A DNA stretch of 11,245 nt from a virus (taxonomy: Duplodnaviria > Heunggongvirae > Uroviricota > Caudoviricetes): IMG/VR virus record IMGVR_UViG_2740892230_000007. One strand, 5' to 3'. Position 1 is the stretch's first letter, and each line of letters starts with the position of its first letter. The translations under genes and the position numbers were made by a program. Below are positions 2,094 to 11,245 of this stretch, piece by piece. A model generated the notes under the pieces. That model was not told the origin of the DNA. It saw only the letters and a list, made by a program, of their open reading frames with translations, and ran no database searches.

Positions 2094-2570
2094 ATGGACG
2101 GCGAGCTGAAAAATATGAAGTTAAATATTAATCAACTGGCAGCCATTTCAGGTCTGCACCGGCAGACTGTTGCCGCCAGAATGGCGGATGTTCCTCTTGC
2201 ACCAGGTAGTAATGAAAAGAAAAAAATGTATCTCCTGACGGATTTGATTATTTCGTTGCTGGAAAAACCACCGGCTTCCGAAGATGAAGAGATGAACCCA
2301 CATGATCGGAAGGCATGGTATCAGTCCGAGCGCGAGCGTCTTAAATTTCAGCATGAAACTGTTCAGCTTGTGCCAGTCAGTGATGTCAGGCGGTCCTTTT
2401 CTGTCGTGGTGAAAGCGATAGTTCAGGTACTGGAAACCTGGCCTGACCGGCTGGAGAGGGACAGGGGGTGGACCGCATCACAACTGAATGAAGTACAGAT
2501 TGTGGTTGATGAGATCCGCGATACACTGGAAAAGGCAGTCATTGACTGTTGTGATGAGGCCGATATGTGA
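2094..2570 (+). CDS. Terminase small subunit (helix-turn-helix DNA-binding N-terminus)
   Basis: ORF 2094..2570, 158 aa. N-terminal LNINQLAAISGLHRQTVAARM looks like an HTH. GGAGGG at 2080-2085. Stop overlaps the GTG start of the large subunit (ATGTGA). Alternative start ATG 2115. Confidence 0.7.
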   Translation: MDGELKNMKLNINQLAAISGLHRQTVAARMADVPLAPGSNEKKKMYLLTDLIISLLEKPPASEDEEMNPHDRKAWYQSERERLKFQHETVQLVPVSDVRRSFSVVVKAIVQVLETWPDRLERDRGWTASQLNEVQIVVDEIRDTLEKAVIDCCDEADM

Positions 2571-4690
2571 ATCAGGTGAACGAGAGCCATAGCCGCGCAT
2601 CCGATATCTGGCGCGAAGTGGCCTCGCTGTTTCGCCCACCCAGCCGGTTACCAGTAGCGGAAGCCATCAGGCGTTATATGCGGGTACCACGGGGAGCCAA
2701 TACTTCCGGTCCGTGGGAGTCATCGCTGACGCCCTATATGATTGACCCCATTAATACATTATCAGCCCGTGAATATGACGCGGTGGTGTTTGTGGGACCT
2801 GCGCGAACCGGGAAAACCGAAGGGCTGATTGATGGCTGGATTGTGTACGGCATCATCTGTGATCCGGCGGATATGCTGGTGGTGCAGATGACTGAGACGA
2901 AGGCGCGTGAGCATTCCAGAACGCGTCTTTCCAGAACGTTTCGCCACAGTCCGGAGGTCAGCAAGCGCCTCAGTCCTTCCCGTAATGACAACAACGTCCA
3001 CGATAAAATGTTTCTTGACGGCTCCTTCCTGAAGATTGGCTGGCCGTCGATCACTGTATTTTCTTCTTCGGATTACCGTCGTGTGGCGCTGACGGATTAT
3101 GACCGTTTCCCTGAAAACGTGGACGGGGAAGGGGATGCCTTCACCCTGGCATCAAAGCGTACCACCACCTTTATGTCCTCGGGGATGACCTTGGTCGAGA
3201 GTTCGCCGGGGCGGGATATCACTGACACCAAATGGCGCTGTGGCGGCGCACATGAGGCACCGCCAACAACGGGGATCCTGTCACTGTATAACCGGGGAGA
3301 CCGCCGCCGGTGGTACTGGCCGTGTCCGCACTGCGGGGAATATTTTCAGCCGGTGATGGATAACATGACCGGATACCGGAATAACCCGGATTTTGTGGCT
3401 GCCGGTCAGGCTGCCCGTCTGATGTGTCCGCATTGTCGCGGGCTGATTGCCCCTGAGCAGAAACGCGAACTGAATAACAAAGGGATCTGGCTTCGTGAAG
3501 GTGAACGGGCGGTGGCGGACGGCAGTATCACCGGAACACCACGAAATTCCAGGATTGCGTCATTCTGGATGGAGGGGCCGGCTGCGGCGTTTCAGACCTG
3601 GGAACAACTGATTTTTAAACTGCTGGCGGCAGAAGAAGAGTATGAGCGAACCGGCAGTGAAGAGACCCTGAAAGCGGTGGTGAACACCGATATCGGACGC
3701 CCCTATCTGCCCCGTTCAGCCACGGAACAGCGTAAAAGTGAACTGCTTGAACAGCGTGCCGAGCCGTTTCCCCGGCGATCTGTGCCGGATGGTGTGCGTT
3801 TTATTGAGGCAACGGTTGACGTACAGGGCGGTAAAAATCGCCGTTTTGTTGTGCAGATCACCGGATACGGAGAGCAGGGGGAACGCTGGATTGTTGATCG
3901 CTATAACATCCGGCATTCACTGCGCTGCAGTCCCAACGGTGAAAGTCTGCCGGTTGATCCGGCGGCATATCCGGAGGACTGGGATTTGTTGCTGACGGAT
4001 GTGTTCCATAAAACATGGCCGCTGGCTTCTGATCCGGATGTGCGCATGCGTCTGATGGCCATGGCGGTGGATACGGGAGGGGAAGCCGGGGTGACAGATA
4101 ACGCCTATCGTTTCTGGCGTCGTTGCCGGAGTGACGGACTGGGCAACAGGGTGTTTCTGTTCAAGGGGGATGGACTTCGCCGTGACAGGCTGATTAACCG
4201 TACCTTCCCGGATAATACCGGCAGAAGTGCCCGCCGTGCCAGAGCCAGTGGCGATGTCGCGCTGTGGCTGGTTCAGACGGATGCGTTTAAGGACCGTGTA
4301 AATAATGCCCTGTGGCGTGACACACCAGGGCCGAACTATATCCACTTTCCCGACTGGCTGGGGCGATGGTTTTACGATGAGCTGACCTATGAAGAGCGCG
4401 GCAGTGACGGAAAATGGCGAAAACCGGGCAGGGGAGCTAACGAGGCGTTTGACCTGCTGGTTTATGCGGATGCGCTTGCCGTTCTGCATGGTTACGAAAA
4501 GATCCGCTGGCCCTCCGCACCGGACTGGGCACAGCGGGAAACGTGGCTCGTCTTCCCGCAGGAGCGTTCTGGTGAAACGGTATCCCCGGAACTGACGGCC
4601 GGGGCAGAAAAACGCCGTCGCCGGAAGAAAAAACTGCGGACGGAGCGTGCGGAAGATAATCCATGGATAACATCAGGAGGCTGGTTGTGA
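2567..4690 (+). CDS. Terminase large subunit, lambda gpA family
   Basis: 707 aa, GTG start at 2567 overlapping the small subunit stop. Walker A-like VFVGPARTGKTE; CPHCGEY and CPHCRG Cys pairs and NKGIWLREG mirror lambda gpA (ACPHCGEEQYLKF, EKTGIWTRDG) as recalled. Confidence 0.9.
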   Translation: MNQVNESHSRASDIWREVASLFRPPSRLPVAEAIRRYMRVPRGANTSGPWESSLTPYMIDPINTLSAREYDAVVFVGPARTGKTEGLIDGWIVYGIICDPADMLVVQMTETKAREHSRTRLSRTFRHSPEVSKRLSPSRNDNNVHDKMFLDGSFLKIGWPSITVFSSSDYRRVALTDYDRFPENVDGEGDAFTLASKRTTTFMSSGMTLVESSPGRDITDTKWRCGGAHEAPPTTGILSLYNRGDRRRWYWPCPHCGEYFQPVMDNMTGYRNNPDFVAAGQAARLMCPHCRGLIAPEQKRELNNKGIWLREGERAVADGSITGTPRNSRIASFWMEGPAAAFQTWEQLIFKLLAAEEEYERTGSEETLKAVVNTDIGRPYLPRSATEQRKSELLEQRAEPFPRRSVPDGVRFIEATVDVQGGKNRRFVVQITGYGEQGERWIVDRYNIRHSLRCSPNGESLPVDPAAYPEDWDLLLTDVFHKTWPLASDPDVRMRLMAMAVDTGGEAGVTDNAYRFWRRCRSDGLGNRVFLFKGDGLRRDRLINRTFPDNTGRSARRARASGDVALWLVQTDAFKDRVNNALWRDTPGPNYIHFPDWLGRWFYDELTYEERGSDGKWRKPGRGANEAFDLLVYADALAVLHGYEKIRWPSAPDWAQRETWLVFPQERSGETVSPELTAGAEKRRRRKKKLRTERAEDNPWITSGGWL

Positions 4691-4899
4691 GCACAGAAGA
4701 AGCCAGAGAAATGATACAGCGGTACCGTGAAGCGGAAATGGCCGTACTGGAGGGGAAGTCTGTCACCTTCAACGGACAGCAACTGACGCTGGAAAGCCTT
4801 TCTCAGATCCGCGCCGGACGTCAGGAGTGGGAACGCAGGCTTGCCGCGATGGTGAGCCGCAGGCGGGGAAAACCAGGATTTAAACTGGCGAGGTTTTAA
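4687..4899 (+). CDS. W: Head completion / head-tail joining protein, gpW family
   Basis: Ends ...RRRGKPGFKLARF, like lambda gpW (...RRRGPAGFYV). Preferred start GTG 4687 (AGGAGG at 4674-4679, overlaps the terminase stop as GTGA); the ORF track's ATG 4663 is an alternative. Confidence 0.75.
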   Translation: MSTEEAREMIQRYREAEMAVLEGKSVTFNGQQLTLESLSQIRAGRQEWERRLAAMVSRRRGKPGFKLARF

Positions 4900-6401
4900 T
4901 GGCAATTATTGATGATGTGATAGGCGTGTTTTCCCCCGGCTGGAAAGCAGCCAGACTGCGTTCAAGGGCGTTAATCATGGCCTATGAGGCGGTGAAACCG
5001 ACCCGGACACATAAAGCCCGGCGGGAAAATCGCTCTGCTGATCAGCTCAGTAAATACGGTGCGGTTTCCCTGCGGGAGCAGGCCCGTTTTCTGGATATCA
5101 ATCATGACCTGGTGATTGGTGTGTTTGACAAGCTGGAAGAGCGGGTGATTGGTGCCAGGGGAATTATTGTGGAGCCTCAGCCATTACGAAAAAACGGGGA
5201 AATGGCGGCAGAGCTGGCTGCGGATATCCGCCGGTTGTGGGCTGAGTGGTCCGTGAGTCCGGATGTGACAGGGCAGTATACCCGTCCCGTGCTTGAACGT
5301 TTACTGCTGCGGACCTGGCTGCGGGATGGTGAAGTGTTTGCGCAGATGGTCAGTGGTGCGGGAAACGGTCTGGAACGGACGGCGGGAGTGCCATTCTGGC
5401 TTGAGGCGATGGAGCCGGATTTTGTTCCCATGCGCACTGATGAATCCGCCGGACTGAATCAGGGGGTTTTTCTTGATGAGTGGGGAAGACCGAAAAAATA
5501 TCTGGTTTATAAAAATTATCCGGTCAGCGGCCGGCAGAGTGATACGAAAGAAATCGCTGCCGGAAAAATGATCCACCTGAAGTTCACTCGTCGTCTGCAT
5601 CAGACGCGAGGCTCATCCATGTTATCGGGGGTGCTGATACGGATCAGTGCCCTTAAGGAGTATGAGGATGCGGAACTCACTGCGGCGCGTATTGCCGCGG
5701 CGCTGGGACTGTATATCCGTAAAGGTGACGGGCAGGACTATGAAGAGCCGGGGATCAAAGAAACCGACCGGGAAGTCCATATCACCCCGGGTATTATTTA
5801 TGACGATTTGCGCAAGGGCGAGGATATCGGCATGGTCAAATCAGACCGTCCCAATCCCAACCTTGAAACTTTCCGCAACGGCCAGTTGCGTGCAGTGGCA
5901 GCGGGCAGTCGTCTGAGTTTTTCCAGTGCGGCGCGTAACTATAACGGCACCTACAGTGCCCAGCGGCAGGAGCTGGTCGAGTCCACGGATGGTTACCTGA
6001 TCCTGCAGGACTGTTTTATTGGCGCGGTAACCCGTCCGGTGTACCGGACATGGCTGAATATGGTGGTTGCGGCAGGTCTGCTGAAAATTCCGGCGGATGT
6101 GGAGATGAAAACGCTATATAACGCGACGTATTCCGGTCCGGTGATGCCGTGGATCGACCCGGTTAAGGAAGCTGAAGCCTGGAGAATTCAGATCCGGGGT
6201 GGTGCAGCGACAGAATCTGACTGGGTGCGTGCCGGCGGGCGCAATCCGGATGAGGTCAAACGTCGCCGCAAGGCTGAAATTGATGAAAACAGCAGACTGG
6301 GGCTGGTCTTTGATACTGACCCCGTCAACGACAAAGGAGGCAACAGTGCCGGAACTGAACAACAGCGTCAGCAGGCCACCGACAGCCAGCATGAAGAATA
6401 A
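4899..6401 (+). CDS. Portal protein, lambda gpB family
   Basis: 500-aa ORF directly after W (TAATG overlap), in the position and of the size expected for a lambda-type portal, between W and the prohead protease. Confidence 0.85.
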   Translation: MAIIDDVIGVFSPGWKAARLRSRALIMAYEAVKPTRTHKARRENRSADQLSKYGAVSLREQARFLDINHDLVIGVFDKLEERVIGARGIIVEPQPLRKNGEMAAELAADIRRLWAEWSVSPDVTGQYTRPVLERLLLRTWLRDGEVFAQMVSGAGNGLERTAGVPFWLEAMEPDFVPMRTDESAGLNQGVFLDEWGRPKKYLVYKNYPVSGRQSDTKEIAAGKMIHLKFTRRLHQTRGSSMLSGVLIRISALKEYEDAELTAARIAAALGLYIRKGDGQDYEEPGIKETDREVHITPGIIYDDLRKGEDIGMVKSDRPNPNLETFRNGQLRAVAAGSRLSFSSAARNYNGTYSAQRQELVESTDGYLILQDCFIGAVTRPVYRTWLNMVVAAGLLKIPADVEMKTLYNATYSGPVMPWIDPVKEAEAWRIQIRGGAATESDWVRAGGRNPDEVKRRRKAEIDENSRLGLVFDTDPVNDKGGNSAGTEQQRQQATDSQHEE

Positions 6402-8334
6402 ATCCTGGTTCAGGATGCAGGCGGGTGGTCAGGGTGAGGCGGATATTTATATTTATGACGAGATTGGTTTCTGGGGAGTTACCGCGAAGCAGTTTGTCAG
6501 CGATATGAATGCCCTGGGTGATATCACCCACATTAATCTCCACATCAACTCACCGGGTGGCGATGTCTTTGAAGGCATCGCCATTTTTAATGCCCTGAAA
6601 AATCACGGTGCGGCCATTACCGTGTATGTGGATGGCGTTGCCGCCTCGATGGCATCCCTGATTGCGATGGCCGGTGACACGGTCATTATGCCGGAAAATG
6701 CCTTCATGATGATCCATAAACCCTGGGGGATCAGCGGTGGTGATGCGGAGAAAATGCGCACTTATGCCGAACGTCTGGACAAACTTGAGTCGGTTATGGT
6801 GCCGGTATATGCGCAGAAAACCGGAAAAACTACCGATGAAATTGCCGCCATGCTGGCGGATGAGACCTGGATGTCCGGTGCCGAGTGTCTGGCACACGGA
6901 TTTGCAGACCAGGTGACGCCAGCCGTTAAGGCAATGGCATGTANNNNNNNNNNCCGAAATATGATCACGCAGCCATACAACAGTGCCCCGCGTGATACCA
7001 CAGTGACAATCCCTGCACCGGCGGTAACAGAACCATCACCGGTACCGGCAGTGTCTGATGAGGCGACCATTCGCGCCCGCGTTATGGCAGAACAGAAAGC
7101 CCGCATGTCAGGCATTAACGATCTGTTTGCCATGTTCGGCGGTCGCTATCAGACGCTTCAGGCACAGTGCGTGGCTGATCCTGACTGTTCGCTGGAAATG
7201 GCCCGTGAACGTCTGCTGAATGAAATGGGCAAGGAGTCCTCGCCGACCAACAAAAATACACCGGCTCATATTTATGCCGGAAACGGCAATTTTGTGGGGG
7301 ACGGGATCCGCCAGGCGATGCTGGCCCGTGCCGGATTTGAAAATGTCGAGAAGGATAACGCCTATAACGGGATGACCCTGCGTGAATGGGCTCGCATGTC
7401 ACTGACGGAGCGCGGTATTGGGGTGGCCAGTTATAACCCCATGCAGATGGTCGGGCTGGCGCTGACGCACAGCACCTCTGATTTTGGCAATATTCTGCTG
7501 GATGTGTCGAACAAGGGGCTGATCCAGGGCTGGGAGGAATCAGAAGAAACCTTCCAGAAGTGGACCCGTAAGGGACGCCTGTCAGACTTCAAAACAGCGT
7601 ATCGCGTGGGGATGGGCGGTTTTGGTTCTCTGCGCCAGGTTCGTGAGGGGGCGGAGTATAAATACATCACCACCTCAGATCGCAAGGAGACCATTGCACT
7701 GGCCACTTACGGGGAGATTTTCTCCATCACCCGCCAGGCCATTATCAATGATGATCTGAATATGCTGGTGGACGTGCCGATGAAGATGGGGCGTGCGGCG
7801 AAGGCAACGATTGGTGACCTGGTTTACAAGGTGCTGACGGATAACCCGAAACTGTCAGACGGTAAGGCGCTGTTCCATGCCGATCACAAAAATATTGCCA
7901 CCGGTGGGATTTCCGTTTCCGGACTGGATGCGGCCCGTCAGATGATGCGCCTGCAGAAAGAAGGCGATCGCGCCCTGAATATCCGTCCGGCCTTTATGCT
8001 GGTACCGGTGGCACTGGAGACGGTGGCGAACCAGACCATCAAATCGGCCAGTGTGAAAGGGGCGGATGCAAACGCCGGTGTCATTAACCCCATCCAGAAC
8101 TTTGCTGAGGTGATTGCAGAAGCGCGTCTTGATGCGGCAGATCCGAAAACCTGGTATCTGGCGGCGGCACAGGGCACTGACACCATTGAAGTGGCCTGGC
8201 TGGATGGTGTGGACACGCCATACATTGATCAGCAGGAAGGTTTCACCACTGACGGCATTGCCACAAAAATCCGTATTGATGCCGGAGTGGCACCACTTGA
8301 CTGGCGCGGGCTGGTGCGTTCGTCGGTGGCCTGA
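6346..8334 (+). CDS. Prohead protease (ClpP/S14-like) fused to scaffold-like linker and HK97-fold major capsid protein; interrupted by an N gap
   Basis: N-terminal part (ADIYIYDEIG...INSPGGDVFEGIAIFNALKNHGAAITVYVDGVAASMASLIAMAGD...MIHKPWG) is ClpP-like. The C-terminal ~400 aa is capsid-like by position and size. Preferred start GTG 6346 (AAGGAGG at 6334-6340); ATG 6391 and ATG 6415 are alternatives. The ORF track's 6199 start overlaps the portal by 200 nt and is rejected. Frame continuity across the gap is not evidence of a real fusion. Confidence 0.75.
   Translation: MPELNNSVSRPPTASMKNKSWFRMQAGGQGEADIYIYDEIGFWGVTAKQFVSDMNALGDITHINLHINSPGGDVFEGIAIFNALKNHGAAITVYVDGVAASMASLIAMAGDTVIMPENAFMMIHKPWGISGGDAEKMRTYAERLDKLESVMVPVYAQKTGKTTDEIAAMLADETWMSGAECLAHGFADQVTPAVKAMACXXXXRNMITQPYNSAPRDTTVTIPAPAVTEPSPVPAVSDEATIRARVMAEQKARMSGINDLFAMFGGRYQTLQAQCVADPDCSLEMARERLLNEMGKESSPTNKNTPAHIYAGNGNFVGDGIRQAMLARAGFENVEKDNAYNGMTLREWARMSLTERGIGVASYNPMQMVGLALTHSTSDFGNILLDVSNKGLIQGWEESEETFQKWTRKGRLSDFKTAYRVGMGGFGSLRQVREGAEYKYITTSDRKETIALATYGEIFSITRQAIINDDLNMLVDVPMKMGRAAKATIGDLVYKVLTDNPKLSDGKALFHADHKNIATGGISVSGLDAARQMMRLQKEGDRALNIRPAFMLVPVALETVANQTIKSASVKGADANAGVINPIQNFAEVIAEARLDAADPKTWYLAAAQGTDTIEVAWLDGVDTPYIDQQEGFTTDGIATKIRIDAGVAPLDWRGLVRSSVA
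6944..6953. other. Assembly gap (10 N) inside the protease/capsid ORF
   Basis: Run of N between the protease domain and the linker region. Confidence 0.95.
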
Positions 8335-8356
8335 TAACCGAGTTATCACAATCACT

Positions 8357-8375
8357 GCCCGAAAGGGCTTTTTTT
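8357..8375 (+). terminator. Putative intrinsic terminator or attenuator after the capsid gene
   Basis: gccc-gaaa-gggc hairpin (4-bp stem, GNRA-type loop) followed by 7 T at 8369-8375, 23 nt after the capsid stop. Short stem, so probably partial termination at best. Confidence 0.4.
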
Positions 8376-8386
8376 ATGCCTGAAAA

Positions 8387-8405
8387 ACAGCCCCACAGGG
8401 GCTGT
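8387..8405 (+). other. Strong hairpin (8-bp stem acagcccc/ggggctgt, 3-nt loop) between the capsid and next gene; no T-tract
   Basis: Perfect inverted repeat read directly; lies 17 nt before ATG 8422. Confidence 0.4.
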
Positions 8406-8421
8406 CCGGAGAAACAGCATT

Positions 8422-8748
8422 ATGGCGAAAAATTTTGTACAGGACGGTACCACCATTGAACTGGTGAATGCCGGAGATCAGACCATCCTGAGCGGTGCTG
8501 CGGTGGTGGTCGGCAGTATGGTGGCCGTGGCCATTACCGATATTCCTGCCGGTGATGCCGGTGACGGTTTTGCCGAAGGCGTGTTCCTTCTGCCCAAACA
8601 GTCTGCTGACGACATTCAGTCCGGCGCGGTGGTTTATCTGAAGGACGGGGTTGTGCAGCTGGCTGCAGAGGGTGCGGTGGCCGCGGGGGTAGCCTGGGAA
8701 AATGCTCCTGCAAACAGCGCCACTGTGGCGGTAAAAATCAATGTCTGA
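8422..8748 (+). CDS. Small Ala/Gly/Val-rich head protein (possible capsid decoration or cement protein, DUF2190-like)
   Basis: 108-aa ORF just after the capsid gene; GGAGA at 8407-8411. Composition and position resemble small head-decoration proteins of lambdoid prophages. Family call is from memory. Confidence 0.5.
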   Translation: MAKNFVQDGTTIELVNAGDQTILSGAAVVVGSMVAVAITDIPAGDAGDGFAEGVFLLPKQSADDIQSGAVVYLKDGVVQLAAEGAVAAGVAWENAPANSATVAVKINV

Positions 8749-9022
8749 TCTGTTTACGCGAATGTGTTGCCGGATGGACGGGGCGACCGTTCGGGTGATG
8801 GGCAAACAGGCGGAGATTAACGGCGTCGTGTATGACGTGATGCCGGAGGAAGAGTCCGCGGAGATGGGGGCGCTTTCGGGCAGCCAGTTGTCACTGGTGG
8901 TGTTTTCAGCCCGGTACCGTCCGGCCCGTCATGATGTTGTTGTGTTTGCGGGGCGCACACTGACGGTGACCCGTTATGACACGTACAACGGTAAACCCCG
9001 GATTTTTGTCGAACAGGAATGA
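8741..9022 (+). CDS. Head-tail joining protein, FII-like
   Basis: 93 aa; 8-nt overlap with the upstream gene. Motifs GVVYDVMPEEES and SLVVFSARY...RTLTV echo lambda gpFII (GVFDDPEN, SLFVRTDEV...DTLTI) as recalled. Sits directly before Z as FII does in lambda. Confidence 0.55.
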   Translation: MSDLFTRMCCRMDGATVRVMGKQAEINGVVYDVMPEEESAEMGALSGSQLSLVVFSARYRPARHDVVVFAGRTLTVTRYDTYNGKPRIFVEQE

Positions 9023-10066: not shown

Positions 10067-10936
10067 ATGGCAATACCAAATCCTCTTGAGCCGGTGAAAG
10101 GTTCCGGCACCACACTATGGGTGTACACCGGCAAGGATGATGCTTATGCCAACCCGTTGTCAGATGATGGCTGGCAGCGACTGGCTAAGGTGAAGGATCT
10201 GACGCCGGGCGAGATGACGGCAGAACCCTACGATGATAACTACCTGGATGATGAAGACGCGGACTGGACCGCGACCGGGCAGGGGCAGAAGTCTGCAGGA
10301 GATACCAGTTTTACGCTGGCCTGGAAACCGGGAGAAGAAGGTCAGAAAGGGCTTATAGGCTGGTTTGAAAGCGGGGATGTGCGGGCCTATAAAATCCGTT
10401 TTCCGAACGGCACGGTGGATGTGTTTCGTGGCTGGGTCAGCANNNNNNNNNNGGAAGGCCAGAAAGGGCTTATAGGCTGGTTTGAAAGCGGCGATGTCCG
10501 GGCCTATAAAATCCGTTTTCCGAATGGCATGGTGGATGTGTTTCGTGGCTGGGTCAGCAGTATCGGTAAGGCCGTGACGGCGAAAGAAGTGATCACCCGC
10601 ACGGTGAAAGTGACCAACGTGGGCAAACCTTCTGTAGCGGAAGAACGCAGCAAAATTACGCCGGTCACTGCGATTAAGGTGACGCCGACATCCGGTACGG
10701 TGGCAAAAGGGAAAACAACCACCCTGACGGTTTCTTTTGAGCCGGAAAGTGCAACAGACAAGACGTTCAGAGCGGTTTCCGCCGATCCGTCGAAAGCCAC
10801 CATTAGTGTGAAAGATATGACAATTACGGTAAACGGCGTGGCGACAGGTAAGGTGCAGATCCCTGTGGTGAGCGGAAATGGTCAGTTCGCCGCAGTGGCT
10901 GAAGTCACCGTTACTGAAGCGGGCGCTGCAGGGTAA
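10067..10936 (+). CDS. V: Major tail protein V (with C-terminal Ig-like domain); contains an artefactual 39-codon duplication across an N gap
   Basis: Near-identical to lambda gpV as recalled ([10 protein letters not shown]...[19 protein letters not shown]...[26 protein letters not shown]...[42 protein letters not shown]...). ORF is 289 aa against 246 for lambda V; the excess equals the duplicated segment plus the gap. Confidence 0.95.
10337..10442. repeat. Left copy of a diverged direct repeat inside V (pairs with 10454-10559)
   Basis: Aligns to 10454-10559 at offset 117 with 5 mismatches. Encodes [35 protein letters not shown]; the right copy has M for T at one position. Confidence 0.85.
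10443..10452. other. Assembly gap (10 N) between overlapping, non-identical segments inside V
   Basis: Run of N flanked by ~106-bp near-identical direct repeats. Confidence 0.95.
10454..10559. repeat. Right copy of the diverged direct repeat inside V
   Basis: See 10337-10442. Confidence 0.85.
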
Positions 10937-10949
10937 ACGGAGGTCATAC

Positions 10950-11245
10950 ATGTTTCTGAAAACAGAACAATTTGAATATAACGGTGTGTCTGTCACGCTT
11001 TCCGAATTGTCTGCGCTGCAGCGTATCGAGCATCTTGCCCTCCTGAAACGGCGTGCAGAACAGGCAGAATCCAGCGGCAACCTGCAGGTAAGCGTGGAAG
11101 ATCTCGTCAGAACCGGCGCGTTTCTGGTGGCGATGTCCCTGTGGCATAACCATCCACAGAAAACGCAGTCACCGTCAATGAATGAGGCCGTGATGAAGAT
11201 AGAGCAGGAAGTGCTCACCACCTGGCCTGCCGATGCCATTGCCCG
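10950..11245 (+). CDS. G: Tail assembly chaperone G, N-terminal ~98 codons (runs off the window end)
   Basis: MFLKTEQFEYNGVSVTLSELSALQRIEHLALLKRRAEQAESSGNLQVSVEDLVRTGAFLVAMSLWHNHPQKTQSPSMNEAVMKIEQEVLTTWPADAIA closely matches lambda gpG as recalled. ACGGAGG at 10937-10943 before ATG 10950. Not in the ORF track because no stop falls in the window; the G/GT frameshift site would lie beyond the window. Confidence 0.9.
   Translation, partial: MFLKTEQFEYNGVSVTLSELSALQRIEHLALLKRRAEQAESSGNLQVSVEDLVRTGAFLVAMSLWHNHPQKTQSPSMNEAVMKIEQEVLTTWPADAIA

Follow-up and report, generated by a model that had tools for sequence, protein, structure and literature searches.

The window examined here, an 11,245-nucleotide stretch of Caudoviricetes DNA (IMG/VR record IMGVR_UViG_2740892230_000007), carries at 6346–8334 a gene that is very probably the one known by the name of ClpP-like prohead protease/major capsid protein fusion, the head-shell gene of a Gifsy-2-type lambdoid Escherichia coli prophage. 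Judging from complete genomes, from which the state of the window's own copy was inferred, this fusion is real and not an artefact of the sequence gap that it spans. As read from the window letters, no stop interrupts the plus-strand frame between 6199 and the TGA at 8332–8334, and all three candidate start codons (GTG 6346, ATG 6391, and ATG 6415) belong to it; the single frame at 6346–8334, spanning a run of Ns, that an earlier sequence-only reading had described is indeed present at these coordinates. A frame open for about 660–710 codons is much longer than would arise by chance, and searches of curated families with its product gave E = 1e-299. The N run crossed by the frame occupies exactly 6944–6953 and is located just past the ClpP-like domain, as the CLP_protease match ends at residue 176 and the gap begins at codon 185 (residue numbers here and below are counted from ATG 6391). 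It is one of five 10-N runs in the window (at 876, 1564, 1819, 6944, and 10443), which are arbitrary placeholders of fixed length: 46 bp are absent at 6944, while the flanks overlap by 106 bp at 10443.

The sequence-only reading had voiced the worry that the placeholder length might fake the fusion and had proposed a comparison with complete homologous prophages. A megablast search of window positions 6300–8400 (2101 bases) against complete E. coli genomes matched 2073 records, 49 of them at an identity of at least 99% and several at 100% on both gap flanks. The matched span was 2137 bases in 19 of the 20 best hits, thus 36 bases beyond the 2101 of the window. Strains FDAARGOS_1059 (record L001) and 55989 (L002) agree with the window at every one of the 40 bases that border the N run on each side, and between these flanks they carry 46 bases, TTCAGTCAAAACGTACAGAGGAATTTAAAAAGATGCCGGAATCCAT, that are free of stop codons and complete codons 185–200 as IQSKRTEEFKKMPESI. 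Since the difference between 46 and 10 is 36, a multiple of three (46 and 10 are congruent modulo 3), the true frame survives the placeholder. The worry about a faked fusion is thereby dispelled by the very genomes whose flanks are identical to those of the window, which carry an uninterrupted fusion with an in-frame fill. Conservation of the junction peptide extends to Gifsy-2 (IHSKRVEEFEHMPQSI) and to 24 homologues that represent several genera, and the coding sequence of the fusion measures 1980 nt in L001, L002, L007, and L008. The single length outlier among the best hits (H8) spans 2129 instead of 2137 bases; a frame change in the fusion was considered and rejected as its cause, because the difference sits in a frameshifted portal gene and the fusion coding sequence still comprises 1980 nt. 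A stop or frame change inside the gap was seen in none of the complete relatives examined, and in all complete genomes examined that have identical flanks, the protease and capsid domains share one uninterrupted frame.

For the domain searches, the gap was filled by using the protein of L001, whose sequence agrees with that of the window on both flanks (100% identity) and which comprises 659 amino acids from ATG 6391 or 674 amino acids from GTG 6346. This repaired protein scored 995.8 bits against NCBIfam NF045540 (scaf_prot_MCP1; cut-off 475), with residues 17–657 aligned to profile positions 2–651 of 652, and matched phrog_133 of PHROGs over its full length at 1143.6 bits; the identical RefSeq protein WP_122986669.1 is labeled as fusion protein by the Prokaryotic Genome Annotation Pipeline (PGAP). 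Both parts that the sequence-only reading had recognized, a ClpP-like protease domain and a capsid-sized C-terminal region, were recovered as CLP_protease and Phage_capsid_4, respectively. The N-terminal part exceeded the cut-off of NF045542 ('head maturation protease, ClpP-related'; 220.8 bits versus 120) and matched solved ClpP structures with E values down to 4e-17. Predicted catalytic positions are Ser86 (6646–6648), His109 (6715–6717), and Asp157/Glu158 (6859–6864), all four residues being invariant in the 24 homologues and encoded upstream of the gap. In an alignment with the E. coli ClpP sequence, Ser86 and His109 coincide with the catalytic Ser and His, and the ClpP Asp falls on Glu158, directly beside Asp157, with a register uncertain by one residue. 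The model for the cellular ATP-dependent ClpP (TIGR00493) gave 64.6 bits versus a cut-off of 308.6, and the scores for other ClpP models were likewise well below their cut-offs; by its sequence, the protein is ClpP-like in fold family only and not a cellular ClpP. In the C-terminal part, residues 369–656 cover profile positions 7–262 of 262 of Phage_capsid_4 (E = 7.2e-56), with a weaker match to Mu-like_gpT (E = 6.4e-10). When solved structures were searched with the whole protein, only ClpP was returned; the C-terminal part alone gave weak matches to 9jod_A (E = 2e-5) and to the Mu GpT-domain proteins 8rkx/8rkc (E = 0.002).

Fusions of this kind, described in the sequence-only reading as annotated in some enterobacterial prophages, are represented by the curated family NF045540, and PGAP names the fusion in all complete genomes sampled, that is, in 39 of 39 evenly spaced records whose match lay on the gene itself. 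The fusion gene was present in 2070 of 5426 complete E. coli genomes (~38%), with up to six copies per genome, and it occupies the same place there, between a lambda-type portal gene and the gene for the cement protein. In a tblastn search of the protein against 50,697 phage records, 82 records held at least 80% of it in one place, including the Escherichia phage LLS (76% identity) and the Pseudomonas phage vB_Pae_BR133a (57.5%), each with one single tblastn piece. The protease–scaffold–capsid fusion is thus already known and very common. Older records list it as 'protease/scaffold protein', 'Clp protease ClpP', or 'head maturation protease', names that hide the capsid part. In VT1-Sakai (L009 1267–2576), the gene is divided by IS629 into a 'scaffolding protein' and a 'hypothetical protein'.

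Several points weigh against our interpretation. Positions 6944–6953 of the window itself are still N, so that the fill had to be taken from other genomes. The window was pieced together from contigs of repeated prophage DNA, and a further 10-N junction (10443) can be demonstrated to be a mis-join or overlap. At the protein level, the scaffold function, the cleavage sites, and self-processing of this particular protein are predictions, and an AlphaFold2 (AF2) model based on the alignment of 24 sequences, all at least 74% identical, reached a mean predicted local distance difference test (pLDDT) score of 35.8 and a predicted template modeling (pTM) score of 0.23, and was unusable for the three-domain layout.

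The long frame could be a chimera of two real fusion genes, produced when reference-guided scaffolding linked flanks that stem from two prophage copies in the same genome. Many E. coli strains possess several copies of the gene, and at 10443 contigs that differ in origin were indeed joined (106 bp are duplicated, and the right part shares only 89.5% identity with the references); however, over 6300–8400 the same three complete genomes (H1–H3) match both flanks at 100%, and each parent gene would still be a fusion even if the flanks differed in origin. We consider such a chimera very unlikely, and we assign a slightly lower probability still to the idea that an insertion sequence or rearrangement at the gap disrupted this copy and caused the contig break, leaving a pseudogene in a defective prophage while the fusion is real for the family as a whole. 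Repeats commonly cause contig ends, and precedents for disruption exist with IS629 splitting the homologous gene in VT1-Sakai and ISEc22 splitting the terminase gene in L001. A simple insertion at the gap, which we considered for this site, would yet be expected to leave abutting flanks and a short target duplication instead of a loss of 46 bp, and the IS629 site in VT1-Sakai lies ~280 nt downstream of the gap position. The presence of up to six gene copies per genome offers a simpler cause, namely that a short shared segment was lost between diverging prophage copies, and the loss of 46 bp between colinear, 100% identical flanks fits better with this dropping of a shared segment. Hardly credible at all is that the gap hides a stop or frame change and that protease and capsid are encoded separately as in lambda, the long open reading frame (ORF) being a placeholder artefact: even though the placeholder length is arbitrary (another 10-N junction conceals a 106-bp overlap) and the gap sits exactly at the domain boundary, every complete genome examined whose flanks are identical or nearly so has the 46-bp in-frame, stop-free fill, the junction peptide is kept in Gifsy-2 at 61% overall identity as well as in the 24 homologues from several genera, and even for a Pseudomonas phage, tblastn aligned the fusion in one piece.

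The start codon of the fusion gene had been left uncertain in the sequence-only reading, and of the three candidates the one it listed first, GTG 6346, is now best backed, by its Shine–Dalgarno sequence (Table 1) and by conservation in phages LLS and cdtI. In these two phages the AAAGGAGGCANCA-GTG arrangement is found as well, and both are devoid of an ATG at the position of 6391. Pseudomonas phage BR133a has GGAGG followed by 5 nt and ATG, and in Gifsy-2 the nearest start lies at least 30 codons upstream of the YDEIG motif. According to the alignment of 24 homologues, Met at 6391 is confined to the sub-lineage of the window, and the largest protein cluster (P0001, 3481 members) has a length of 674 amino acids, matching the upstream GTG start. 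On comparative grounds, we thus favor GTG 6346 as the probable start, ahead of the ATG 6391 chosen by PGAP for this sub-lineage. The AAGGAGG motif at the same time encodes Lys-Gly-Gly of the portal C-terminus, and the overlap with the portal gene, which is read in a different frame, would be 56 nt from GTG 6346 and 11 nt from ATG 6391. ATG 6415 was rejected as a general start: the sequence NSWFRMQA, encoded past the portal stop codon and before ATG 6415, is conserved across genera, and therefore translation must begin upstream of 6415; moreover, Gifsy-2 and BR133a have no Met there. For practical use, it can be retained that the apparent fusion is no gap artefact, that the 10-N spacers of this window are arbitrary, and that GTG 6346 is to be favored over the PGAP start.

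Between protease and capsid domains, the linker has a hypervariable spacer rich in Pro, Thr, and Ala and, after it, a conserved block predicted to be helical (DEATIRARVMAEQKARMSGINDLFAMFGG...). In the AF2 model, pLDDT values of 62–82 were reached by this block alone, which is helical there too; we take this as weak evidence. Stand-alone families of head maturation proteases with long extensions at the C-terminus (phrog_94, phrog_53, and phrog_2976) can also be aligned to the linker, and linker plus capsid module, from about residue 196–202 onward, are homologous to NF045541 (417.5 bits) and phrog_4523 (391.5 bits). Most likely, the linker acts as an internal scaffold, in analogy to the delta domain of HK97 or to lambda Nu3.

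A more speculative idea, to which we attach a low probability, is that Met196 serves as an internal start, giving rise to a protease-less scaffold–capsid protein beside the full-length fusion, much as Nu3 of lambda is made from within gene C. The Met196 codon sits at the protease/linker boundary within the 46 bp missing from the window (L001 7677–7679) and coincides with the beginning of the NF045541 and phrog_4523 alignments. Together with a Shine–Dalgarno-like core (GAGGA or GGAG) about 9–10 nt upstream, it is found in the E. coli gene, cdtI, LLS, Gifsy-2, and Pseudomonas phage BR133a; in the E. coli gene, where GAGGA is positioned 10 nt upstream, it is the only in-frame start with a five-base core of this type. 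Against an internal start it must be held that the same bases encode a conserved Glu-Glu/Gln-Glu and that the spacing is long. If it were used, the Met196 start would set the protease-to-coat ratio in the procapsid.

Starting from the observed domain content, the conserved Ser and His, the uninterrupted ORF in complete genomes, the family membership, and the gene order, an assembly pathway can be proposed in which the scaffold role, self-cleavage, T number, and cement binding are carried over from work on Gifsy-2 and from general knowledge of HK97 and lambda. The gene would be translated into one polypeptide of 674 amino acids with an N-terminal ClpP-family protease, a linker of ~170–180 residues, and a C-terminal capsid protein of the HK97 type (Mu gpT/Phage_capsid_4). 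Such fusion proteins may build up a T=7 procapsid on the portal, with their protease and scaffold parts in its interior, whereupon the protease would cut away itself and the linker to leave a capsid domain of ~300 residues. The shell would then expand upon DNA packaging, and trimers of the cement protein encoded at 8422–8748 would bind at the 3-fold positions and stabilize it.

The window as a whole represents a standard lambdoid late region (Table 1), in which the cement gene is followed by genes for a Gifsy-2-family head–tail joining protein, gpZ, gpU, and a gpV-like tail protein. Inspection of ORFs and searches against Pfam and PHROGs identified no separate protease, scaffold, or capsid gene in the window, and therefore the fusion gene must supply all three. 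The order of portal, fusion, and cement genes is the same in Gifsy-2, LLS, cdtI, and BR133a. As an observation on the terminase gene, its large-subunit counterpart in FDAARGOS_1059 (L001 1355–3689) is split by ISEc22. A scan of 6100–8800 for promoters and terminators gave nothing above shuffle expectation that would bear on the fusion gene. Two hairpins not flagged by the terminator scan are present in the intergenic region between capsid and cement genes (8335–8421), one (GCCCGAAAGGGC) followed by seven T residues on the plus strand and the second (CAGCCCCTGTGGGGCTG) followed by five T residues when read on the minus strand. The names given to the 93-amino acid protein encoded at 8741–9022 are in conflict: Pfam PF13856 ('Gifsy-2') describes it as 'ATP-binding sugar transporter from pro-phage', PGAP as 'DNA breaking-rejoining protein', PHROGs as a minor tail protein, and the LLS record as a head–tail joining protein. 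Its position suggests a head–tail connector.

Table 1. Position of the fusion gene, its parts, and neighboring features in the window.
Feature	Position	Strand	Basis or remark
DUF1441 protein	2094–2570		
gpA-type large terminase	2567–4690		
gpW-like adaptor	4663–4899		
Lambda-family portal gene	4899–6401	+	Pfam Phage_portal_2 E = 6.4e-80; portal annotation in L001 and L007
Shine–Dalgarno sequence (AAGGAGG) within the 3' end of the portal gene, 5 nt before GTG 6346	6334–6340	+	Read from sequence
Tripartite head gene (ClpP-like prohead protease, linker/putative scaffold, major capsid protein)	6346–8334	+	1989 nt as written; 2025 nt (674 aa) with the 46-bp fill; PGAP start ATG 6391 (659 aa)
ClpP-family (S14) serine protease domain, residues 30–176	6478–6918	+	Pfam CLP_protease E = 1.5e-36
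10-N placeholder; 46 bp in complete genomes with identical flanks	6944–6953	.	Comparison with L001 and L002
Linker/putative scaffold, ~residues 201–368	6954–7458	+	Alignment of 24 homologues
Major capsid protein domain, Phage_capsid_4/Mu gpT type, stop codon included	7459–8334	+	Pfam
Head cement/decoration protein gene (DUF2190/Phage_cement_2)	8422–8748	+	Pfam Phage_cement_2 E = 5.2e-19; phrog_122 'head decoration' E = 3e-39

Apart from the fusion gene, other parts of the window show assembly faults. An overlap of 106 bp (95% identity) exists between the flanks of the N run at 10443–10452, and the contig to its right (10453–11245) is only 89.5% identical to the references and therefore probably derives from another prophage copy. 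The gpV-like major tail ORF (10067–10936, 289 amino acids) contains a false duplication of 36 residues ending in (T/M)VDVFRGWVS, the reference gene encoding 248 amino acids. At the left end (1–1828, with gaps at 876, 1564, and 1819), small contigs are out of order on a complete reference, with 1–543 corresponding to L007 586–1128 at 89%, 886–1060 to L007 501–675, and 1080–1267 to L007 949–1135; the left end is therefore not a faithful contiguous sequence.

Among known systems, the closest studied counterpart is the tripartite capsid gene of the Salmonella phage Gifsy-2 (STM1034.3n, NC_010393 22471–24561), which is 61% identical from end to end and has the same protease–linker–capsid order. The gene order is shared as well, with terminase, gpW-like adaptor, portal, fusion, a cement protein of ~107 amino acids, and gpZ/gpU/gpV tail genes, the 107-amino acid cement protein that follows the fusion being 54% identical to the product of 8422–8748. 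Gifsy-2 differs in belonging to another host lineage, in its diverged and shorter Pro/Thr/Ala-rich spacer, and in a start annotated further upstream (696 amino acids). Effantin and colleagues reportedly described its protease–scaffold–capsid fusion in 2010 (Virology 402:355), and autoproteolytic maturation is reportedly known for Gifsy-2 only. The existing work on capsid structure and processing concerns Gifsy-2 and not this E. coli variant. Gifsy-2 is the studied example of the fusion (PMC12315714), and at the 3-fold axes of its capsid sits a cement protein that is trimeric (PMC8538268). Members of NF045540 comprise E. coli prophages and the phages CP-1639, Stx2a/Stx2d-converting, ASU11, 1720a-02, cdtI, and LLS; the window gene has 96–100% DNA identity to many of them, without any substantive difference from this family. 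In a second fusion family, NF045541 (scaf_prot_MCP2), a different protease is present; with 417.5 bits versus a cut-off of 525 and an alignment restricted to residues 202–656 that leaves the N-terminal protease unaligned, the window gene is not a member of it.

Head proteins of the LLS type are characterized as very unlike those of lambda (PMC12315714). Terminase, portal, and tail genes of the window do resemble their lambda counterparts, and the same roles are filled in both systems (prohead protease, scaffold, trimeric cement, and a coat protein of the HK97 fold); lambda differs in its separate coat gene E and in a cement protein of the gpD type versus the Phage_cement_2 family here. The protease of the fusion matches ClpP (S14) models best; lambda C is of the S49/SppA type. 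As in the fusion, a single reading frame (C/Nu3) serves both protease and scaffold of lambda. A further likeness to the fusion is seen in HK97, where gp5 carries the delta-domain scaffold fused to the N-terminus of the coat protein until it is removed by the prohead protease. HK97 differs in that its protease gp4 is encoded by a separate gene and belongs to a different family, and in that its capsid is held together by covalent crosslinks and not by a cement protein.

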